Part shown: positions 5,946-58,212 of the stretch, one piece after another
Layout of the letters: every line of letters starts with the position of its first letter
Numbering within the stretch: the stretch's first letter is position 1
IMG/VR virus record: IMGVR_UViG_3300032334_002267
Location: 73,310 to 137,309 of that record
Direction: 5' to 3' (one strand)
DNA: 64,000 bases
From: a virus
Taxonomy: Duplodnaviria > Heunggongvirae > Uroviricota > Caudoviricetes
Notes under the pieces: model-generated
The model's input: the letters and a program-made list of their open reading frames with translations, nothing else
Databases searched by the model: none
Told to the model about the DNA's origin: nothing
Program-made: the position numbers and the translations under genes

Positions 5946-6188
5946 ATGATATGCCCAGCATGTAAAGAACAAGGATCAAAATCTCAAGTACAAACTGAAG
6001 GTGTTATGACAACACTTATGGGGTATGCAACGTACTACGATGAAGAAGGTAGACAACATCACCACGATGATAATTCAAGAACAACGATAGGAGAGTGTAG
6101 TAATGGCCACGTTTTTTCTTATAGATATGAGAATAGCTGTTGGTGTGGATGGGTAGGTAAAACCGAAGAATATAAGATTATAAAATAG
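5946..6188 (+). CDS. small zinc-ribbon protein
   Basis: MICPACKEQG...CWCGW. Confidence 0.4.
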   Translation: MICPACKEQGSKSQVQTEGVMTTLMGYATYYDEEGRQHHHDDNSRTTIGECSNGHVFSYRYENSCWCGWVGKTEEYKIIK

Positions 6189-6279
6189 TCAGGTGGCGCA
6201 ATGGTAGCGTGTTGGTGAGTAATCCGCTTACGGCGGAACCAAAAGACAAAGGTCACAGGTTCGAATCCTGTCCTGACTA
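6187..6279 (+). tRNA. tRNA-like gene, 93 nt, non-canonical
   Basis: Acceptor AGTCAGG/CCTGACT; D-stem GCGC/GCGT; T-arm ACAGG-TTCGAAT-CCTGT; candidate anticodon arm TCCG-CTTACGG-CGGA (UAC, Val) but the D region is about 8 nt too long. Confidence 0.45.
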
Positions 6280-6710: not shown

Positions 6711-6817
6711 AGTCAGGTGGCGGAGTGGCTTAACGCTGAGCATACATAAAGTCCTTGGGTGTGGTATGTATGATACCCATACACGAGGGCTCACAGGTTC
6801 GAATCCTGTCCTGGCTA
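6711..6817 (+). tRNA. tRNA-like gene, 107 nt, with an internal extended hairpin
   Basis: Acceptor AGTCAGG/CCTGGCT (one GU pair); T-arm ACAGG-TTCGAAT-CCTGT; internal CATACAT...ATGTATG stem. Confidence 0.4.
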
Positions 6818-27686: not shown

Positions 27687-27721
27687 AAAGGATATATAGA
27701 TAAAATCTTAGGTTTTTATCA

Positions 27722-40298: not shown

Positions 40299-40348
40299 TT
40301 GTATATATTGAAACCCCGTCTGTTATAGAAAATAAAGATATATAGGAC

Positions 40349-42950: not shown

Positions 42951-43991
42951 TTAGAATCCTAAGTCTGCAAGATCTGCAGATGCGTCCGAACCTTCTTTAT
43001 CGTAATCTTCAATTGTTTTCCAGATAGCAGGAAGCTCCTTCTTAATATGATCTATTATTTCAAACTTCTTAGGGTGATCGGTTATAGCACCATAAGCAGT
43101 TGAAACGTCGGCTAATGAGAATAAATTTCTGATTACGTTAGACTTATCGGACCATCTATCTTCCCAACTTCTAAGTAAAGCATTTTTAAAACTTAAATTA
43201 TATTGCTTCATTACCTTAAACGTGTTTACAAGAGAATCATAAATTTTTGGAGCAATTCCATTCTCCTCAAAATTTACAGTTCCTTGAGGGATTGGAATAT
43301 CGCTTATATCTGTGATCTGATTTTTAGAAAAATCCATGTTTCCTTTAATAGAAGTCGTGCCAGGTTTAAGTCCTTTTAGATTCTTAAGTTTATTGTTACT
43401 AACATTAATGTTATTAGAAATATCTTCCGGACATCCTTCCAATGTTTCAAGATCATTATTTTGAGCCATAAGAGATCTAACTGATTTAGGAGCTCCTGAA
43501 AGATCCTCTAAATTATTATAGCTACAGATTAAACTACCGTTTATCTTTTTAGGTAATCCTTCTAATGAAGTTAATCCGCAATGTGAGCAATCAACTTTAC
43601 CTCCGATTTCACTAGGGGCAAATTCTAAACTTTTTAGCTTCTTGTTATAAGAGCAATTGAAATCAGCTCCAACTGTTAAAGGTCCATTCTTTAAACTTGT
43701 TAATTTATTGTAGTCGCAATCAAAGCTACCGCCAACTTCTTCTGGTGCACCCTTTAGACCATCTAAGTCGTTGTGGCTACAGTCAAAGTTTCCTGAGACT
43801 GTTCCAAATAGAATTCCTTTAAAATCCGATAGATCGTGATCGGAGCAATCCAAGTCACCTTGGATGTCTATTCTTCTGGTTAAGGAGTTGTACTCCCATT
43901 TACCGTCAACCACCTCTTCGAGGAATTGTTCTTGCTCCTCAGTTAAATTTGATGAGGATTCGAAAATTTTAAAATCTAGTATTCTTTTCAT
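42951..43991 (-). CDS. LRR-repeat paralog-family protein (ends ...ADLADLGF)
   Basis: About seven 22-23-aa repeats FxCSxNxLxSLxGAPxxVGG; conserved termini. Confidence 0.6.
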   Translation of the reverse strand: MKRILDFKIFESSSNLTEEQEQFLEEVVDGKWEYNSLTRRIDIQGDLDCSDHDLSDFKGILFGTVSGNFDCSHNDLDGLKGAPEEVGGSFDCDYNKLTSLKNGPLTVGADFNCSYNKKLKSLEFAPSEIGGKVDCSHCGLTSLEGLPKKINGSLICSYNNLEDLSGAPKSVRSLMAQNNDLETLEGCPEDISNNINVSNNKLKNLKGLKPGTTSIKGNMDFSKNQITDISDIPIPQGTVNFEENGIAPKIYDSLVNTFKVMKQYNLSFKNALLRSWEDRWSDKSNVIRNLFSLADVSTAYGAITDHPKKFEIIDHIKKELPAIWKTIEDYDKEGSDASADLADLGF

Positions 43992-44509: not shown

Positions 44510-44560
44510 TACAGACTATATATCCTCCTCGGTATCATTGTATATTGGATATATACAGGA

Positions 44561-46871: not shown

Positions 46872-47960
46872 TTAGTATAATCCAGATCTTATCATCTTGC
46901 CTATTCTGCCAATGTCTTTGATCCCTAATTTCTTTAAAACTTTTTCCTTTAACTCAGGTAAAGAATCTAGGAGATAGATGTCCAACGGATTATCTTCAAA
47001 ATATTTATATAGATAATGTCCTGAACCTACACCCTCAAGATAAGAAAGTAAGGAATCCAAACTTTCCTTATTCTTTATTGGAAGATGACCTGTGTTGTAA
47101 CCTCCGTTGAATTCTAAAATTGCCTTCATTATACCTTCGATTGTCCAGTCATATTTGCTCGGGAAAAAATGAAATCCAAAGTCATCTGATGAATTCACAT
47201 ACAATCCACCTTTAATATTCCCAGGAAGAGTCAGTCCAGATAGATCCCTAGGAACTCTTGATCCGTATATAGAGAAAGACCCTCTGATTTCATCAGGGGA
47301 TCCAATTAGATTTTTTAAGAAATCACTACTGTCAATCCTAAAATTACCACCAACATATCTTGGTGCTATATTTAGATCTTTGACTTTTACCCTGATAACA
47401 AAGGAGCCATCGACCTTTCCGAACTGAACACCAGAGAGATCACTGATGTCTTTATCTGAATTTACCTCAACTGAGGATGAAAAGTCAACTTTTTTAGTTT
47501 GATCGTTATACTTCCATTTTCCTTTGGTAACTCTATTAACTGCTTTAATTTGATCATCAGTTAAAGGCCCATGGTTTTTAGTTCTGATGTCTCTCTGGAC
47601 ATCTTTCTCCCATCTTTGTATTAGGTAGTCTAAAATATCCTTTAGATCGACAGGGAAATCTTTATATCTTTTAATGAAACCACTAGAAACCGATTTATCC
47701 CTAATGTAGCCACTTTTTTGTAGAACTATGCCATCCTTGTATCCTAGATCTCGGGTAAAGTTTTTTAGCAATATAGTTTGATTTAAAGCCATACGTGAAG
47801 TTGTCACATCGCTAAAACCAAGTTGTTGGAGGGTCTTCCATTCTGGCATGTCCTTCCAATTTGTGGGCCAGTTTGGATCTCCAGAGGGGATAAATCCCTC
47901 GTTAATTTTGGATTCTTTTATGTGATTGCTAAAAGAAGTGTAGTTTAAAATGTTAGGCAT
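46872..47960 (-). CDS. paralog-family-related protein
   Basis: NWPTNWKDMPEWKTLQQLGF and KGKWKYNDQTKKVDFS mirror segments of the 56895 gene. Confidence 0.5.
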   Translation of the reverse strand: MPNILNYTSFSNHIKESKINEGFIPSGDPNWPTNWKDMPEWKTLQQLGFSDVTTSRMALNQTILLKNFTRDLGYKDGIVLQKSGYIRDKSVSSGFIKRYKDFPVDLKDILDYLIQRWEKDVQRDIRTKNHGPLTDDQIKAVNRVTKGKWKYNDQTKKVDFSSSVEVNSDKDISDLSGVQFGKVDGSFVIRVKVKDLNIAPRYVGGNFRIDSSDFLKNLIGSPDEIRGSFSIYGSRVPRDLSGLTLPGNIKGGLYVNSSDDFGFHFFPSKYDWTIEGIMKAILEFNGGYNTGHLPIKNKESLDSLLSYLEGVGSGHYLYKYFEDNPLDIYLLDSLPELKEKVLKKLGIKDIGRIGKMIRSGLY

Positions 47961-48034
47961 ACCCTATATATCAAATAAAGAGGGACTCAAATATTATCTG
48001 AATCCCCCTTATAGGTGTTGGTTTTGGACTATTA

Positions 48035-49945: not shown

Positions 49946-50047
49946 CGGTCAGGACAGGATTCGAACCTGTATCTTGCCTTTCTGTATCGTCCCACTACTG
50001 GGTTGATTGGGGGGTCGAACCCCATGTTGCCATTACACCACCTGACC
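49946..50047 (-). tRNA. tRNA-like gene, about 102 nt, same acceptor family (GGTCAGG/CCTGACC); possible Ser(CGA) with a very long variable region
   Basis: Reverse complement gives GGTCAGG-TG-GTGT-AATGGCA-ACAT-GGGG-TTCGACC-CCCC-[38 nt]-ACAGG-TTCGAAT-CCTGT-CCTGACC. Confidence 0.45.
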
Positions 50048-51535: not shown

Positions 51536-52288
51536 TTAAAACATGTGTCTAGATTTGTTATATCTAGCCATCATTTCCAGTCTTTTAACCTCTTCGTTAG
51601 ATAAATCCTCTTTTATATCGGGATAGAGTAGTGACTTGTCCTCCTCTCCTAGTCTAAAAGTCCATATGTCTAATAACGCCTCCTTATATGATTTGCCCTT
51701 GCGCATCTCAGGTAAAATATAATGAATCGCTGATTCTGATATTGGATTTTTCTGACCGTTAAACCCACTGGTTACAACATTTACTTTAAGACCTCTGAGA
51801 GAAACCACATTGTTATTATTAAAATATAAAGATCCGATTTCTCCTGATTGGGGAAGTCCTTCTAAATTTTCAAGAAGATTATGCGAACAATCATAATTTT
51901 CAAAAACCTGACTAGGACCACCCTGAAGTGTTAAAAGATTGTTGTTTGAACAATCAAAGTTTCCTCCAATAAAATCAGGAGATCCTTCGAGTGTTTCAAG
52001 TTTATTGTAACTACAATCAAAACTATGGGAAACTTTTCTAGGACTACCCTCTAGTGATTCTAGAAGATTTTTAGAGCAATTAAAATATGAAACTTTCCCA
52101 AATTTTAATCCCATAAAGTCCTTTAGGTTATTCCCACTAACATCAAAGCTATATCCCGAATTTATAAATCCATCCTCCATCGACCAAGGATTCCCTCTGA
52201 ATCCCATATTCAAAAAATCTATCTGTTCCTCGGTGAGTTCTGAGGTTACATTTGACTCAAACAATCTATATGTCTTAATGTGTTTCAT
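51536..52288 (-). CDS. LRR-repeat paralog-family protein
   Basis: MKHIKTYRLFES plus 22-aa repeats. Confidence 0.55.
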   Translation of the reverse strand: MKHIKTYRLFESNVTSELTEEQIDFLNMGFRGNPWSMEDGFINSGYSFDVSGNNLKDFMGLKFGKVSYFNCSKNLLESLEGSPRKVSHSFDCSYNKLETLEGSPDFIGGNFDCSNNNLLTLQGGPSQVFENYDCSHNLLENLEGLPQSGEIGSLYFNNNNVVSLRGLKVNVVTSGFNGQKNPISESAIHYILPEMRKGKSYKEALLDIWTFRLGEEDKSLLYPDIKEDLSNEEVKRLEMMARYNKSRHMF

Positions 52289-52491: not shown

Positions 52492-53244
52492 CTAGAATCC
52501 CAATTCTCCTAAGTCAGACATTAGTTCAGCATCAGAGGAAAACTCCTCAGAAATTTTAGAATAAAGATTTGGCATTTTTTTCTTTATATCCGAAACCAAG
52601 CCTATCTTTTTAATCGGATTATTCTCGATGTAAGATTTAACTCTTTTTACTAATATAGGGTCAGAAATATCACTAGGCAGAGTGAATAACATTAGAGCAA
52701 AATCGGAATCAGGAATGCGAATGCTGGAAAGACATTCTAGAAAAGCTTCTGTATAAGAACTTTTTTTATCAGAATTTATTCTTACCTTTAGCATCTCGCG
52801 GCACACTGCATCAAGAACTTTTTCTGAGACAGGATTATCATACGACCAAAAATTACCACCAATATGTACAGGAAGTCCTTCCAGAGACACTATTCTATTT
52901 TTTTCACACCAAAGGCTTTCCCCCACTCTAGTAGGTGCTCCAACTAAAGACGTAAGTCTATTACCATCACAAACAAAACTTCCCTCAACATTTATTGGCG
53001 CTCCTTCAAGGGATTCAAGAAGATTGTTTTTACAGATGAAATTACCCTTGATGTGGCCGAATTTTACACCTTTGAAATCGGTTAGACCCTGATCATTGCA
53101 CCAAAACCCACCATATACATCTACAAGTCCATCCTCGTTAATATCCCATCTAGATCCCAATGCGGATTTATTCAACCAAGCCTCCTGCTCTGAAGTGAGA
53201 ATACCTACGCTCTCGAAAAACTTATAGCTATTAATGTGCTTCAT
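52492..53244 (-). CDS. LRR-repeat paralog-family protein (ends ...SDLGELGF)
   Basis: MKHINSYKFFES, repeats, C-terminal module. Confidence 0.6.
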   Translation of the reverse strand: MKHINSYKFFESVGILTSEQEAWLNKSALGSRWDINEDGLVDVYGGFWCNDQGLTDFKGVKFGHIKGNFICKNNLLESLEGAPINVEGSFVCDGNRLTSLVGAPTRVGESLWCEKNRIVSLEGLPVHIGGNFWSYDNPVSEKVLDAVCREMLKVRINSDKKSSYTEAFLECLSSIRIPDSDFALMLFTLPSDISDPILVKRVKSYIENNPIKKIGLVSDIKKKMPNLYSKISEEFSSDAELMSDLGELGF

Positions 53245-53257
53245 CTCTTATATATCA

Positions 53258-53288
53258 TAAAAAAGCAGGGGTTATTGGCCCCCGCTTT
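53258..53288 (-). terminator. rho-independent terminator (minus strand)
   Basis: AGCGGGGG-CCAATAA-CCCCTGCT-T6 read on the minus strand. Confidence 0.6.
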
Positions 53289-53328
53289 TGATAAAAATCT
53301 CATTGATATGTGAGATCTAAAATATTTA

Positions 53329-54762
53329 TTAATTTAATGAGTAATTTCTTATAGCTAATTTATTAACCTTTAACCCTTTAACTAACTCTCCGTCTTGCTT
53401 GTAAATAACGATGTCATATTTATTTGAGGTGTTAAGCTCGTATTTAAAAACTGTCATTGGTTTCCCATCTTCACTTACTGGGCTGCAACATCCATTTAAA
53501 CATTTTTTATTTCTAGGATCGCCGTGATTAGCACCAAAGAAAGACATTATACCAATAAATGATACATCCTTAGGATCGAACTGAGTACCGTCAGTGTGAT
53601 TGATATAAACCTCATAAACTCCCATAGGAAGTTCATCGAAAGTGGTTGAGATCTCTAATAAAGTTTTAGAGTTGTTATAATTGGCTGGACTCGTTAAAGT
53701 ACCAACGTGTGTTGATTTTCCTTTTATTAGAGTGTTTGGAGTTGAAGAAGCAAGAATTTCTCTAGGTCCTATTTTAGCATCAGGAGCATTTGTGTTAAGA
53801 TAAACCTTAGTGTCATCATAATCATAGTCCATGTTATAAACAACAGCCATAACCTCCTCTGGAGTGTAGACTACAGATTTACCATTCTCGTCGAAGAATT
53901 GATATTTCCAAGGATTATCCTTTAACTGCTGTAAAGTTATTTTCTGACCATACGGAGAATTCAGCCACTTTTGAAAAACTCTATCAATGTTTGAATGATG
54001 AGTCCAAAAGATAGGATCGAATCCTGCTGTAGGAACTTGAGCCATTAAACCAGTTAGAGAATTTTTCTGCATGATTCTATTATAGTAGATGTCATGAATG
54101 TGGTTACCCATACCGATGTAGTTATGCATGGTTCCATGTATTCCTCTATCAAAGTTCGAATTGAATGTTTGATAATCTGTGATCTGCATTAGTTTAGGAT
54201 AATCCCCGTCAATGGCTCTACGTGCTGATCCCTCTATAGGTTTACCGCTATTTAATGATTTAACTCTGGCTTCTTCATACAGTGAGCTACTAGTGTCTCT
54301 CCATTCGGTTGGCATGATCTTATCTGGGTTATTATAGTTTGTGTAACCCCAGTAAGGCAAAGCAAAATCTTTTTTACCTGATGTTTTTCTAACTATCTTT
54401 TCGAAGTGCCAGATATACATTCTGTGCCAGATCAGGAAGTTTATTTCTTCTGCCCCGCTATTTGAGTGCGTGCACTCATCCCAAGCCATTTTTAATTCTG
54501 TCCAATCTGCATATGATTCACACAGCTTATTGGAATCAATTTGTTGAGGAACCCAGTGGATTGCTGCTTGGTAATACCAGCTTGTAGGATCGTTACAGTC
54601 TTTTGACTTCATAATCTCCATAGCCTTGTTCATTGCCTCAACGTCTGCCTGAGCATCGGAGGTGTTTGCGTTTTTCCTCACATATCTAGAACCCGATTTA
54701 TCGTTGCAAGAAGCAACAAGTAGAACAGACAGGATACTGAGAACACTTAATACTTTTCTCAT
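53329..54762 (-). CDS. tyrosinase/polyphenol-oxidase-family copper protein, lipoprotein
   Basis: CuA FLIWHRMYIWHFE and CuB FDPIFWTHHSNIDR signatures; lipobox LLVASC; start probably at MRKVL. Confidence 0.75.
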   Translation of the reverse strand: MRKVLSVLSILSVLLVASCNDKSGSRYVRKNANTSDAQADVEAMNKAMEIMKSKDCNDPTSWYYQAAIHWVPQQIDSNKLCESYADWTELKMAWDECTHSNSGAEEINFLIWHRMYIWHFEKIVRKTSGKKDFALPYWGYTNYNNPDKIMPTEWRDTSSSLYEEARVKSLNSGKPIEGSARRAIDGDYPKLMQITDYQTFNSNFDRGIHGTMHNYIGMGNHIHDIYYNRIMQKNSLTGLMAQVPTAGFDPIFWTHHSNIDRVFQKWLNSPYGQKITLQQLKDNPWKYQFFDENGKSVVYTPEEVMAVVYNMDYDYDDTKVYLNTNAPDAKIGPREILASSTPNTLIKGKSTHVGTLTSPANYNNSKTLLEISTTFDELPMGVYEVYINHTDGTQFDPKDVSFIGIMSFFGANHGDPRNKKCLNGCCSPVSEDGKPMTVFKYELNTSNKYDIVIYKQDGELVKGLKVNKLAIRNYSLN

Positions 54763-54852
54763 TTTAATTGTTTTTTTAGTGTACATTAATTTATTATAGA
54801 GCAAAACAATTCAGGGGTTTCAGAGGATTCTTAGATAACACACACAAAAAAA

Positions 54853-54880
54853 GCAGACCAAAGCCTGCTTAAACTATATG
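54853..54880 (-). terminator. hairpin terminator (minus strand)
   Basis: AAGCAG-ACCAAAGC-CTGCTT plus T7 on the minus strand. Confidence 0.5.
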
Positions 54881-54891
54881 ATTAGTTATAT

Positions 54892-55584
54892 TTACTTCTC
54901 TTTCTTCTGAAGTTCTTTACTATACTCAGCAACAGGAACCGGCGTGCCAACAGGATAAGGAAATCCCAATTTAGCTGCTGTTATTGAAGTCATACCGTTT
55001 TGAACCGGTATTGCTTTACGTAATGGAACTGCTGCTTCATTAAGTGGTCCATACACTTTTGCCAATACAATACCTGTAGATGTTGTGTCGAAGATAACGC
55101 CTGGCATTGCAAACATGTTACTCTCACTTGTACTTGGAGAATCCAAATTGATCACAAAAGCTCTATTCACAGGTGGTAGTAATTCCCACTTCTTGGTTTC
55201 AGGATTAAATTGAGGAATGGTTGTTGTGGAATCGTAGTACCAAAACAAAGACCATATAGTATTACTTGTTCCATCGGGGGTTTGGAAGTTATTCTTTACG
55301 TTGAAATTTCCATAGGTTCCGCTGAAACCTTCCATTGCTAAATTAGAAAGAGATGGTCCGTCTAATACTGGACATATTGCACATCCTTCATCATACTCAA
55401 CTCCTTGTATAACAATCTTTTTCCCTGTAGGAACCGCTGCTGATGCTCCGCAAAAAGCAAAAGCTCCTTGATGCACTTCTACGATTTTCTCAGCCTTGAT
55501 GTCTTCCGCTGTTTCTGTTTTTGTGCTTGTTTCACAGCCAAATAACATAGTAGCAGCAACAACACTTAAAATAAATTTTTTCAT
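54892..55584 (-). CDS. lipoprotein
   Basis: MKKFILSVVAATMLFGC lipobox. Confidence 0.5.
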   Translation of the reverse strand: MKKFILSVVAATMLFGCETSTKTETAEDIKAEKIVEVHQGAFAFCGASAAVPTGKKIVIQGVEYDEGCAICPVLDGPSLSNLAMEGFSGTYGNFNVKNNFQTPDGTSNTIWSLFWYYDSTTTIPQFNPETKKWELLPPVNRAFVINLDSPSTSESNMFAMPGVIFDTTSTGIVLAKVYGPLNEAAVPLRKAIPVQNGMTSITAAKLGFPYPVGTPVPVAEYSKELQKKEK

Positions 55585-55620: not shown

Positions 55621-55929
55621 TTATTCCGACCAAGCTGGATTAGCAATAATCAGCTTTCCCCCTTCTATTCTTGGAATAGGCTCTGTTGAGTTATAGTCAT
55701 CATAAACTATGTCTTCTGAGTAGAATTTTTTTCCGTCAAACATAACGTAGTTGTGTTCGTCTCTTGAGACGTTATCTCTACCCGTAGCGCTCCAACCTTG
55801 GCCTCTATAGGAGTCGTGTGCAGCTTGGTGTATTGATGGTTTACCGAAAAGTCTATCCCAAAGTCCCTCATTTACCTCAGATTGAGGTTGATTTGAGTTG
55901 AAATTCTCATATTTTTTAAGATTCTCCAT
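55621..55929 (-). CDS. hypothetical protein (MENLKKYENF)
   Basis: 102-aa ORF. Confidence 0.4.
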   Translation of the reverse strand: MENLKKYENFNSNQPQSEVNEGLWDRLFGKPSIHQAAHDSYRGQGWSATGRDNVSRDEHNYVMFDGKKFYSEDIVYDDYNSTEPIPRIEGGKLIIANPAWSE

Positions 55930-55969
55930 TTTTATTGTTTTTTTTTATATTATTTTTCTATATATCGCA

Positions 55970-56878
55970 TTAAAACCCAAGATCCATCAAATCCGAAGTG
56001 GCTCCATCCGGATCTAATTGATCCTTAACCTTAGACCAAACATCCGGCAGAGTGTCTTTAATTTCTCCGTAGATCTCAAACTTATCTGACGGGGAAAAGT
56101 TATTCGATAGTATACAGTCAACGTCTAATAGTGACAGAAGCATTTCTTTTAATTTAGGTTGAAAATGCCTCCAATCGTCCACTTCTTTTAACTTTGCAAG
56201 GAGGGTTTTGACAAATTCAGCATCACCTTTTTTGTCCCAGCCTTTAGACCAATTTAATAACCCGGATAAACCTTCATCCCCCACGAAGTTGCCTACACTT
56301 TCAGGTGCTCCTGCAAAGGAGGTAAGTTTTATATTATGAGAACAATTGAATAGTTTGCCAACAGTCAGAGGTGCTCCTTCCAGATTTTTAAGATCATTAA
56401 AGCGACAATCGAAATTCCCACCAACAGTCTCTGGTGCTCCATCTAGACTTTCTAGATTATTAGAGCTACAGGAGAAATCTCCACCAACACTCAGAGGTGC
56501 TCCTTTCAGATTTTTAAGCGGTTTACACCAATCGCAATTGAAATCTCCCACAACAGTCTCTGGTGATCCATCTAGACTTTCTAGAGGATTAGAGCTACAA
56601 TCGAAATTCCCACCAACACTCAGAGGCGCTCCAGTCAGAATTTTGAGCTCATTTTGTTTACACGTGAAATCCCCTTCAACCCGTCCAAATTTTACCCCCT
56701 TAAAATCCTCCAGATTTTGAAGAATGCAATTGAAATTCCCCATAACATCAACAAGACCTGTTGATGGATTAAGAGCCCAACCTTTAGAGTTTTTTGTACA
56801 GCTATTCAACCAATAGATCTGTTGTTCAGTAAGAGATGTAGGAGTATTAAAATCCTCGAATAATTTTACATGCTTCAT
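55970..56878 (-). CDS. LRR-repeat paralog-family protein (ends ...SDLMDLGF)
   Basis: Start at MKHVKLFEDF; the upstream part of the table ORF is the neighbour's C-terminus plus the TATATA box. Confidence 0.6.
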   Translation of the reverse strand: MKHVKLFEDFNTPTSLTEQQIYWLNSCTKNSKGWALNPSTGLVDVMGNFNCILQNLEDFKGVKFGRVEGDFTCKQNELKILTGAPLSVGGNFDCSSNPLESLDGSPETVVGDFNCDWCKPLKNLKGAPLSVGGDFSCSSNNLESLDGAPETVGGNFDCRFNDLKNLEGAPLTVGKLFNCSHNIKLTSFAGAPESVGNFVGDEGLSGLLNWSKGWDKKGDAEFVKTLLAKLKEVDDWRHFQPKLKEMLLSLLDVDCILSNNFSPSDKFEIYGEIKDTLPDVWSKVKDQLDPDGATSDLMDLGF

Positions 56879-56894
56879 TGTCCTATATATCGCA

Positions 56895-58196
56895 TTAAAA
56901 CCCAAGGTCAAGCAAATCCGAAGTGGCTCCGTCTGGATCTACTTTGTCTTTAATCTTATTCCAAATATCAGGCATATTGTCTTTGATTAATCCGTAGATC
57001 TCAAACTTCTCATCTGGTGGAAGAGATTTAGATAGAAGGTAATCAGACATATCTTTAGCACCTTTAGCCCCTAGCATTGACAGAAGCATTGTTTTTAATC
57101 TGGGTTTGTCAACTGGTTTATCTTTATCATACTCAAGATCTTCAATTTCTTTTAACTTGCTCATGACAGTTTTGATAAATTCAGCACCGCCCTTTTTATT
57201 CCATCCCTGCTTCCAATCCAATATGAAGAACCCACGCTCGGAATTCCAATTTTTAATAAAGAAATTTCCAACACTTTCTGGTGCTTCTGCAAGTGAGACG
57301 AGAGGATTATCCGCACATTGAAAAGAACCCTCCACCACCTCTGGAGCTCCTTCTAGGGTTTTAAGAGAATTGTACCCGCAATTAAAAATTCCTTTTATTC
57401 TCTTGGGTGCTCCCTCAAGCGAGGTAAGGGCATTTTGTGCACAATTGAAATATCCACCAACTTCCTGAGGTGCTTCCTTAAGCGAGGTAAGGGCATTTTG
57501 TGCACAATTGAAATCCCCGCCAACCTTTCGGGGTGCTCCCTCTAGAGATTTGAGTCCAGCACTCTGGATATTAAAATAACCACTCACCTCTCCAAACTTA
57601 ATCCCCCTAAATCCGAGTTTGTTTTCAGCGATTGATGAAAAATTTCCAGAGATATCAATCTCCCCTGTGGTTTCGTTGAACTCCCACTCTCCCTTTGTTG
57701 ATTTATTCATCCAGTTAACCACTGATGGAGTGAGTCCGTGTCTTTTGTATAATTCACCCATGGGATCAGTAATCCCAGTTCTGCTTACAACACCCTCTCT
57801 AACCTTTGGCAGATCCAATAACACATCGATCATCTCAGGATTGGCCTTCATGAAGTCGTCTAGGTCTTTAACGGGAATTAAAGAAATGCCTTTTTTGGCG
57901 AATCTTTTAATCACGTAGTAGAGTAGGCTTGACATTATCTTTGGTCCAGAGGTCATTGAAGATTGATACACGTAACCCTGATCTGACGTTCTCACATAGC
58001 CACCCGCAGTGAGTCTGTGAACAACTTTAGAATATGAGGACCCGATTGAAACAGTGCCTTTGCTGTTTGTTCCTAGAATTTCAAATCCCATTAGTTGTAG
58101 GAGTTTCCACTCAGGCAGATCCTGCCAGTTGCCAGCCCAATCCTCGGATGTGATGGCCTTGGATTCGAATAAGGAGAAAGGTAGAAGATTTTTCAT
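56895..58196 (-). CDS. LRR-repeat paralog-family protein (ends ...SDLLDLGF)
   Basis: Start at MKNLLPFSLFES. Confidence 0.6.
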   Translation of the reverse strand: MKNLLPFSLFESKAITSEDWAGNWQDLPEWKLLQLMGFEILGTNSKGTVSIGSSYSKVVHRLTAGGYVRTSDQGYVYQSSMTSGPKIMSSLLYYVIKRFAKKGISLIPVKDLDDFMKANPEMIDVLLDLPKVREGVVSRTGITDPMGELYKRHGLTPSVVNWMNKSTKGEWEFNETTGEIDISGNFSSIAENKLGFRGIKFGEVSGYFNIQSAGLKSLEGAPRKVGGDFNCAQNALTSLKEAPQEVGGYFNCAQNALTSLEGAPKRIKGIFNCGYNSLKTLEGAPEVVEGSFQCADNPLVSLAEAPESVGNFFIKNWNSERGFFILDWKQGWNKKGGAEFIKTVMSKLKEIEDLEYDKDKPVDKPRLKTMLLSMLGAKGAKDMSDYLLSKSLPPDEKFEIYGLIKDNMPDIWNKIKDKVDPDGATSDLLDLGF

Positions 58197-58200
58197 ATTG

Positions 58201-58212
58201 CTATATATCGCA
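58201..58212 (-). promoter_or_regulatory. TGCGATATATAG box between the stop and start of tandem paralogs
   Basis: Same 12-mer at 55958-55969 and 56883-56894; variants at 59405-59415, 47963-47974, 44506-44515 (-), 44547-44556 (+), 53246-53258 and 60497-60509. Confidence 0.5.

Follow-up and report, generated by a model that had tools for sequence, protein, structure and literature searches.

A probable large-phage polyphenol oxidase with its own lid and lipoprotein signal, of a lineage apart from its bacterial cousins

We analysed a 64,000-nucleotide stretch of the IMG/VR virus record IMGVR_UViG_3300032334_002267 (positions 73,310 to 137,309 of that record, hereafter the window), which carries on its minus strand a gene for a tyrosinase-family protein of 477 amino acids. 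This gene is probably an accessory cassette, complete in itself, on a large phage that infects a Bacteroidota host, and its product a pre-pro-tyrosinase, that is, a type-3 copper polyphenol oxidase. The evidence comes from the copper sites, an N-terminal lipoprotein signal, a C-terminal lid domain, and the distribution of relatives of this gene and of its upstream neighbour, a lipoprotein gene that we call lip230.

The two copper-binding strings quoted in a first-pass annotation of this DNA, FLIWHRMYIWHFE and DPIFWTHHSNID, are both present in the translation of the mechanically called open reading frame (ORF; 53329-54804, minus strand), and its identification of a tyrosinase is borne out by a match to the Pfam family Tyrosinase (PF00264) that is far beyond chance (E 2e-29; 103.9 bits against a cutoff of 22.6). 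Across 53 aligned homologs, with identity down to 43%, all six copper histidines were invariant, namely His69, His99 and His113 at the CuA site and His209, His213 and His256 at the CuB site. Cys97, which makes up a C-x-H motif with His99, was likewise invariant. His43, Cys76/His78 and His87 of HcTyr1, the tyrosinase of Hahella sp. CCB MM4 (PDB 8B74), align with the CuA histidines and the C-x-H motif of the window protein, and His256 also aligns with a ligand of that enzyme. A HMMER alignment to the hemocyanin motif had put His221 and His223 forward as CuB ligands; this assignment was rejected because these residues are not conserved, whereas His209 and His213 are invariant. In the AlphaFold2 model (predicted local distance difference test score, pLDDT, 87.7; predicted template modelling score 0.89), the predicted helices 197-218 and 251-268 carry the CuB histidines. 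Foldseek matched this model with probability 1.00 to tyrosinases, catechol oxidases and hemocyanins through the helical-bundle core fold.

Mollusc hemocyanin units are among the top sequence matches and have the C-x-H motif in common with the window protein, as might be expected of a non-catalytic type-3 copper protein that binds or stores oxygen, or of a passenger gene that is in decay and does nothing for the phage. We think there is very little chance of either. No copper histidine is lost on the full alignment of homologs, so that the degenerate storage protein, which the first-pass annotation had named as the alternative to an oxidase, finds no support. The ligands and many other positions are invariant down to 43% identity and in many different phage contexts, and this invariance implies purifying selection. 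Moreover, the architecture fits latent oxidases and not hemocyanin multimers, and the closest solved single-domain relative, HcTyr1, is an active tyrosinase (PMC11609597).

The residue that follows the first CuB histidine has been linked to activity, with Asn at this position associated with monophenol hydroxylation (PMC11608171). In the window protein it is Gly210, which is invariant among the homologs, and because it is not Asn, ‘polyphenol oxidase’ is, on sequence grounds, a safer name for the enzyme than ‘tyrosinase’; we retain the latter for the gene and family. The enzyme could conceivably be a narrower one, a catechol oxidase or o-aminophenol-type oxidase that acts on a specific envelope or environmental phenolic, such as humic phenols or a host aryl pigment, and that makes no melanin from tyrosine. 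The invariant glycine, where monophenol-active enzymes such as HcTyr1 have Asn (PMC11608171), and the origin of the relatives in lake and other environmental metagenomes would both suit such an enzyme, which we nevertheless hold to be on the unlikely side. The Asn rule is not absolute, sequence alone yields no substrate information, and a narrower specificity would refine the explanation given here rather than compete with it.

The mechanically called ORF is an extension of the tyrosinase gene to a TTG start. We take the ATG at 54762 as the likely start codon because homologs of 475-478 amino acids begin at the equivalent position (MRKVL...); these align with 100% coverage, most of them from MRKVL or MKKLL. 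The ATG at 54786 is a possible alternative, and the closest homolog (P0001, 485 amino acids) was called from its equivalent. The lipobox L-V-A-S-C is present with either ATG and ends at Cys19 in the numbering from 54762. It is kept in all 14 close homologs (62-97% identity), which upholds the lipoprotein signal of the first-pass annotation, and in homologs further removed the N-terminus bears either a lipobox or a membrane anchor. As a predicted signal, the lipobox shows export and membrane tethering outside the cytoplasm, without implying surface exposure; the residues following Cys19 (CNDKSG) give no clear signal for export to the surface.

The C-terminal part of the protein resembles the lid of latent polyphenol oxidases. 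The best Foldseek matches, which extend over ∼510 columns with E values of 1e-15 to 1e-19, are full-length latent enzymes only, namely 8b74 (HcTyr1), 4z11 (latent aurone synthase), 6els (apple MdPPO1), 6hqi (tomato polyphenol oxidase) and 7xio (Ralstonia TYR), whereas active forms that lack the lid align over only ∼330-375 columns. For this reason, residues ∼330-477 of the model are assigned as a polyphenol oxidase-type lid. The lid domain alone has no sequence-level match among solved structures, and its assignment is therefore a fold comparison. Precomputed Pfam annotation of some bacterial homologs includes PF25271 (DUF7868) and PF12143 (PPO1_KFDV), with DUF7868 at residues 383-502 in a Flavobacterium copy, the sole homolog in which the position was checked.

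At the end of a lid strand stands the sequence Phe408-Phe409-Gly410 (FFG), and it is followed by a loop that contains Cys421, Cys425 and Cys426, with pLDDT below 50 at residues 416-424. This loop reads C-x3-CC in the phage-clade proteins, including all those whose inspected context was phage-like, whereas in chromosomal Bacteroidota homologs it is rich in His or Met (HKHNH..., HAHHGGG, HHAGMHMPGM). In the mushroom enzyme abPPO4, Phe454 is the blocking residue and is followed by a disordered loop with a CXXC motif that is described as incorporating copper (PMC4157443). By analogy, Phe408 or Phe409 is a candidate for the residue that blocks the dicopper site. The cysteine loop is probably a copper-loading loop, because this position is always rich in metal-binding side chains, even though the chemistry differs between the clades. 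We infer that blocking and copper loading would both act in cis, within the tyrosinase itself.

The first-pass annotation had also pointed to a second lipoprotein gene immediately upstream on the same strand, and had likened the two genes to the Streptomyces melC1/melC2 pair. The upstream gene is as described: lip230 has a lipobox that ends at Cys17 (MLFG-C17; close homologs keep LFSC or LFGC), within an N-terminus that starts MKK and is of the Sec type, without a twin arginine. In a two-gene caddie system, lip230 would bind the tyrosinase, deliver copper to it or escort it, and block its active site, as MelC1 does for MelC2. The adjacency of the genes on one strand, the lipoboxes on both, which would bring both products to the envelope, and a C68-x-x-C71 pair in the lip230 of the window might all be taken to favour such a system.

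The properties of lip230 itself argue otherwise. It has no match in Pfam, NCBIfam or PHROGs; a comparison with PDB sequences gave merely a 20-residue match to a designed protein and nothing informative; and it has neither a fold match nor any sequence or fold similarity to MelC1 (PF06236). An exhaustive search of 1.84 billion cluster representatives yielded only 68 related clusters, and across the relatives Cys45 and Cys71 are the only conserved cysteines. Consequently, the CxxC is not a conserved motif, as only its Cys71 is kept, and the single His of lip230 is not conserved either. A terminator-like hairpin stands between the two genes. The tyrosinase, for its part, is not of the MelC2 type (33 bits against the NCBIfam model TyrosinaseMelC2, NF047834, whose cutoff is 450), and because it has a lid domain of its own it would not need a caddie.

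We then examined linkage at 88 lip230 loci and 26 loci of same-family tyrosinases, with flanks of up to 10 kb each. No tyrosinase was found within 10 kb at 87 of the 88 lip230 loci, and no lip230 was nearby at 25 of the 26 tyrosinase loci; at the sole joint locus (L006), the two genes are 9 kb apart. In a related 315 kb contig (L009), the next gene begins 8 nucleotides after lip230, with no hairpin and no tyrosinase. These comparative data largely refute the interpretation as a caddie pair, to which we attach next to no probability. On the same comparisons, lip230 is an independent, highly conserved gene of the phage family and not a helper of the tyrosinase. The 120 best lip230 clusters are at least 79% identical, and close relatives are found on phage contigs of up to 373 kb; a protein identical to lip230 (P0121) is encoded on a contig of 154 kb. 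For a gene of a phage accessory region, lip230 is unusually conserved (74-100% identity on more than 80 viral contigs), and its distant members have ordinary signal peptides and two invariant cysteines.

No tyrosinase homolog came up at E 1e-5 when 50,697 deposited phage genomes were searched at the nucleotide and protein levels. When the threshold was relaxed to E 1, a single marginal match appeared, to an UNVERIFIED_ORG Ralstonia phage record, and this is probably host DNA. The tyrosinase has no PHROG, and the literature that we searched contained nothing relevant on phage tyrosinases. The earlier remark that a phenol oxidase is unusual for a phage is thus well founded, since tyrosinases are essentially absent from deposited phage genomes. 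Family members do occur in 21 IMG/VR viral contigs, at 42-69% identity, and some of these contigs are 250-476 kb long. Relatives come from lake and other environmental metagenomes, and every metagenome context that we inspected was phage-like, a term that refers to gene content and IMG/VR membership and not to a complete genome with structural genes. The neighbours in these contexts include, for example, thymidylate synthase, GIY-YIG and HNH nucleases, DNA ligase, ribosomal protein S21, Clp protease and a tail-fibre collar domain.

The sole match in a bacterial genome was a chromosomal Flavobacterium lipoprotein gene that lies among nadC, DHDPS-family and 5'-nucleotidase genes; related named proteins are encoded on an Emticicia chromosome and in Flavobacterium and Chitinophagaceae metagenome-assembled genomes. 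In a quick neighbour-joining tree, calculated without support values, a phage clade, comprising all the inspected phage-like sequences together with several uninspected ones, separates from a chromosomal clade. This split suggests that phages took the gene once, long ago, from a Bacteroidota host and that it diversified in them afterwards.

It might be argued that the gene is bacterial and not viral, and that the window or its relatives come from mis-binned contigs, an integrated element or the host chromosome. Bacteroidota chromosomes do carry a family with 48% identity, and no capsid or terminase gene was identified within the 64 kb window. We consider this reading very improbable. The window contains two T4-type RNA ligases, a Dda-like helicase, glycosyltransferases, an SPFH protein, a CHAP peptidase and many small ORFs of unknown function, and in gene content it looks like part of a large phage. 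Relatives of lip230 and of the tyrosinase are carried by IMG/VR viral contigs of 100-476 kb, and the inspected phage-like tyrosinases and the chromosomal ones fall into different clades of the tree with different lid loops.

Several further genes were seen in the course of this comparison. Two relatives of this phage family (L013, 11467-12495; L014, 5344-6366) encode a secreted protein with a MopE-type copper-binding domain, PKD domains and a type-9-secretion C-terminal tail, which argues for Bacteroidota hosts and for other copper-related envelope proteins in these phages. On a phage-like contig of 214-304 kb (L001, 6577-9947), genes for a PAS histidine kinase, a response-regulator-like protein and a bacteriorhodopsin-family protein lie immediately upstream of the tyrosinase homolog, and it is notable that a contig of a large phage should combine a rhodopsin with a two-component pair. 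Another phage-like contig with a tyrosinase homolog (L134; 2665-2853, 9357-10331 and 14095-14901) encodes ribosomal protein S21, a UvdE UV-damage endonuclease and an Fpg-type glycosylase. Several giant-virus assemblies (GVMAG, L034-L048) carry distant tyrosinase-like genes, with 23-27% identity over the copper core.

Within the window, the tyrosinase gene looks like an autonomous accessory cassette because terminator-like hairpins are predicted on both sides of it (Table 1). The hairpin between lip230 and the tyrosinase, which the first-pass annotation had placed at 54853-54880, is real and only slightly offset; no site in 10 kb looks more terminator-like, and a 61-nucleotide stretch that includes it folds with -17.8 kcal/mol (z = -4.4). 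The RNA just past the stop codon (53245-53330, minus strand), where two hairpins follow in tandem, folds with -25 kcal/mol (z = -4.6). Across 20 loci, no gene was a conserved neighbour of the tyrosinase except within one closely related subgroup.

Table 1. Features of the tyrosinase region of the window. Positions are those of the window; residues are numbered from the ATG at 54762.
Feature	Position	Strand	Description
Tyrosinase (polyphenol oxidase) coding sequence	53329..54762	-	477 amino acids plus stop; Pfam, full-length homologs, AlphaFold2 model
Predicted Sec-type lipoprotein signal peptide	54706..54762	-	MRKVLSVLSILSVLLVASC; read from sequence; Cys19, predicted lipidated residue
CuA site	54424..54558	-	His69, Cys97-x-His99 (possible thioether pair), His113; invariant in 53 sequences
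CuB site	53995..54138	-	His209, His213, His256; invariant in 53 sequences
C-terminal beta-sandwich lid domain (predicted)	53332..53775	-	Roughly residues 330-477; Foldseek
Phe408-Phe409-Gly410 and loop with Cys421, Cys425, Cys426	53485..53541	-	Invariant columns; candidate blocking residue and copper-loading loop
Two tandem terminator-like hairpins	53253..53318	-	Just past the tyrosinase stop codon; second GC-rich, then six T
Terminator-like hairpin and T-run	54844..54870	-	Between lip230 and tyrosinase; 8-pair stem 54870-54851, then seven T
lip230, conserved phage lipoprotein of unknown function	54892..55584	-	Starts MKKFILSVVAATMLFGC; no demonstrable partner to the tyrosinase
Leucine-rich-repeat-like paralogs	42951-43991, 46872-47960, 51536-52288, 52492-53244, 55970-56911, 56895-58223, 58213-59400	-	Seven similar ORFs

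Both genes are embedded, as the first-pass annotation had noted, in an array of paralogs. Between 42.9 and 59.4 kb, all on the minus strand, there are seven leucine-rich-repeat-like ORFs, whose products are mutually similar with BLASTP E values of 1e-6 to 1e-86. None has a Pfam match; for most of them NCBIfam and PHROGs gave nothing either, and the few exceptions were weak, sub-threshold matches, those in PHROGs being to families of unknown function. Several have a similar N-terminus (MKH...FE) and several end in a common ...SDL(M/L)DLGF; on other phage contigs, relatives of these paralogs adjoin lip230. A further ORF, p102 (102 amino acids, 55621-55929), has no match in PHROGs, NCBIfam or Pfam and is likewise unlinked to the tyrosinase.

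The sequence GATATATAR occurs 17 times in the window, where 2.3 copies are expected, and nearly all copies stand on the coding strand shortly before an ORF start, at a distance of between a few bases and a few tens of bases. Examples on the minus strand are found at 53248-53256, 55958-55966, 56883-56891, 58201-58209, 59405-59413, 47964-47972 and 44516-44524, and on the plus strand at 27691-27699 and 40337-40345; upstream of lip230 the motif is degenerate. From its position and over-representation, the motif probably serves as a phage promoter whose transcripts have a very short leader. Three Rfam tRNA matches in the window (6187-6279 and 6711-6817, plus strand; 49946-50047, minus strand) are unusually long, at 93-107 nucleotides, and ARAGORN calls the first of them only, as a tRNA-Asp with the odd anticodon ATC. 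These may be intron-containing or otherwise atypical phage tRNAs.

How might the enzyme work? The Sec-type lipoprotein signal would send the unfolded tyrosinase across the inner membrane, where lipidation of Cys19 would tether it in the cell envelope, and copper would presumably be loaded after export. The lid would cover the dicopper site by means of an invariant Phe (408 or 409), and the flexible loop with Cys421, Cys425 and Cys426 would probably pass copper to that site, so that both tasks of the Streptomyces caddie, blocking and copper delivery, would be done in cis by the lid. Once the lid had been displaced or cleaved, the membrane-bound core could use O2 to oxidize o-diphenols, and possibly monophenols, to quinones, which may then polymerize or cross-link nearby molecules. 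The analysis shows the family membership, the intact ligands, the fold of the lid, the lipobox, the hairpins on both sides, the recurrence on phage contigs and the missing linkage to lip230; we infer lipidation, the role of the copper loop, latency, substrate and benefit to the phage in this scheme.

Several points weigh against this scheme or against its setting. The glycine that replaces Asn at position 210 may mean that the enzyme is a catechol oxidase rather than a true tyrosinase. The proposed blocking role of Phe408 or Phe409 and the geometry of the cysteine loop draw on conservation and analogy, and the three lid cysteines could instead form a structural disulfide in the oxidizing periplasm. 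No promoter was recognized between the upstream hairpin and the tyrosinase start, where we found no GATATATAR and neither a convincing sigma-70-type site nor, by eye, one of the Bacteroidota type. Finally, contexts were called phage-like in the sense given above.

The most economical reading of the sequence evidence is that quinones or a melanin-like polymer would be made in the envelope of the infected cell. Protection against light or oxidants, a barrier to further infection, and the handling of environmental phenolics are all possible benefits, and we suggest only tentatively that pigment or cross-linking protects or seals the infected cell. Melanisation, cross-linking of envelope components and the killing of uninfected sibling cells, which the first-pass annotation had offered as roles for activity at the infected-cell surface, are conjectures. 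More speculative still is the broader proposal that a phage-specific, envelope-anchored tyrosinase lineage with a cysteine-cluster lid loop is an auxiliary gene widespread among the large Bacteroidota phages of fresh water, and that it melanizes or quinone-cross-links the host envelope during infection, perhaps shielding a long-lived infected cell from light and oxidants or sealing it against phage attack. The rhodopsin and sensor kinase (L001) and UvdE and Fpg (L134) near tyrosinase homologs lend weak, circumstantial support to a protective role.

The enzyme is an ordinary pre-pro-tyrosinase with a lid in cis, and it is the phage lineage that is new: diverse, previously undescribed, predicted to be membrane-anchored, carried by large phages, and with a lid loop that differs systematically from the bacterial one. 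Melanin and reactive quinones are the products of phenol oxidases, and phages are not normally credited with such chemistry. The clade spans 43-97% identity on large uncultured phage contigs, and its diversity in many gene contexts implies that some phage-related function is under selection. If active, the enzyme could give infected cells pigment or chemical cross-links, which would affect how well they tolerate light and oxidants, how readily they can be infected again, and how phenolic matter is turned over in lakes. The contrast between the cysteine cluster of the phage loop and the His- and Met-rich bacterial loop also provides a clean handle on caddie-free copper acquisition by exported tyrosinases.

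Among known systems, mollusc hemocyanin functional units give the top-scoring sequence matches (E 5e-33, summed over repeats) and have C-x-H in common with the window protein; they differ in being multi-unit animal oxygen carriers, and the similarity is limited to the copper-binding core. The C-x-H pair of mollusc hemocyanins forms a thioether. The MelC1/MelC2 system resembles the window enzyme in that a type-3 copper oxidase is exported from the cytoplasm and needs an active-site blocker and a copper donor. MelC1 is exported by the twin-arginine (Tat) pathway, bears His residues, and carries MelC2 out along with itself. MelC2 is short, has neither lid nor signal, and is co-transcribed with the 13 kDa MelC1 caddie (PF06236), which handles copper insertion and secretion (PMC11608171), whereas the window enzyme has its own predicted Sec lipoprotein signal and lid, and its neighbour lip230 is unrelated to MelC1 and unlinked.

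The chromosomal ‘tyrosinase family protein’ lipoproteins of Bacteroidota with DUF7868, as in Flavobacterium sp. DG1-102-2 (L008) and Emticicia sp. 21SJ11W-3, are 48% identical to the window protein from the N-terminus through the FFG of the lid, and the Flavobacterium copy, which was inspected, matches it in overall architecture and bears the lipobox LASC. These two cases lie among housekeeping genes or on a complete chromosome, and we found no characterized member of the group. The chromosomal proteins differ from the window protein in having a His- or Met-rich loop in place of C-x3-CC, in forming a separate clade, and in a C-terminal end that is recognizable as DUF7868 or PPO1_KFDV, which that of the window protein is not.

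The fungal pro-tyrosinases, Agaricus bisporus PPO4 and Aspergillus oryzae MelB, are similar at the level of fold only (13-15% identity), are eukaryotic, have CXXC instead of C-x3-CC, and lose their lid by proteolysis. They are soluble and not membrane-anchored. Nevertheless, they have a beta-barrel lid with a Phe blocker, followed by a disordered loop with a Cys motif that is proposed to load copper (PMC4157443), a layout that parallels the FFG and then C-x3-CC of the window protein.

HcTyr1 is the best single-domain match among solved structures (sequence E 1e-24, fold E 1.7e-19). It differs in having only ∼20% identity in the structural alignment, Asn after the first CuB histidine where the window protein has Gly, and a spacing of 23 rather than 43 residues between the second and third CuB histidines; its gene is chromosomal and gammaproteobacterial, and its description does not mention a signal peptide or lipoprotein (PMC11609597). 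It is an active tyrosinase with both monophenolase and diphenolase activity, a self-cleaving C-terminal lid, and Phe397 as the blocking residue (PMC11609597). HcTyr1 and the window protein nevertheless have in common the six histidines, C-x-H at the second CuA histidine, a core plus C-terminal lid, and a similar length (466 and 477 amino acids), and Phe397 of the one and Phe408 of the other are each 69 residues away from the C-terminus.

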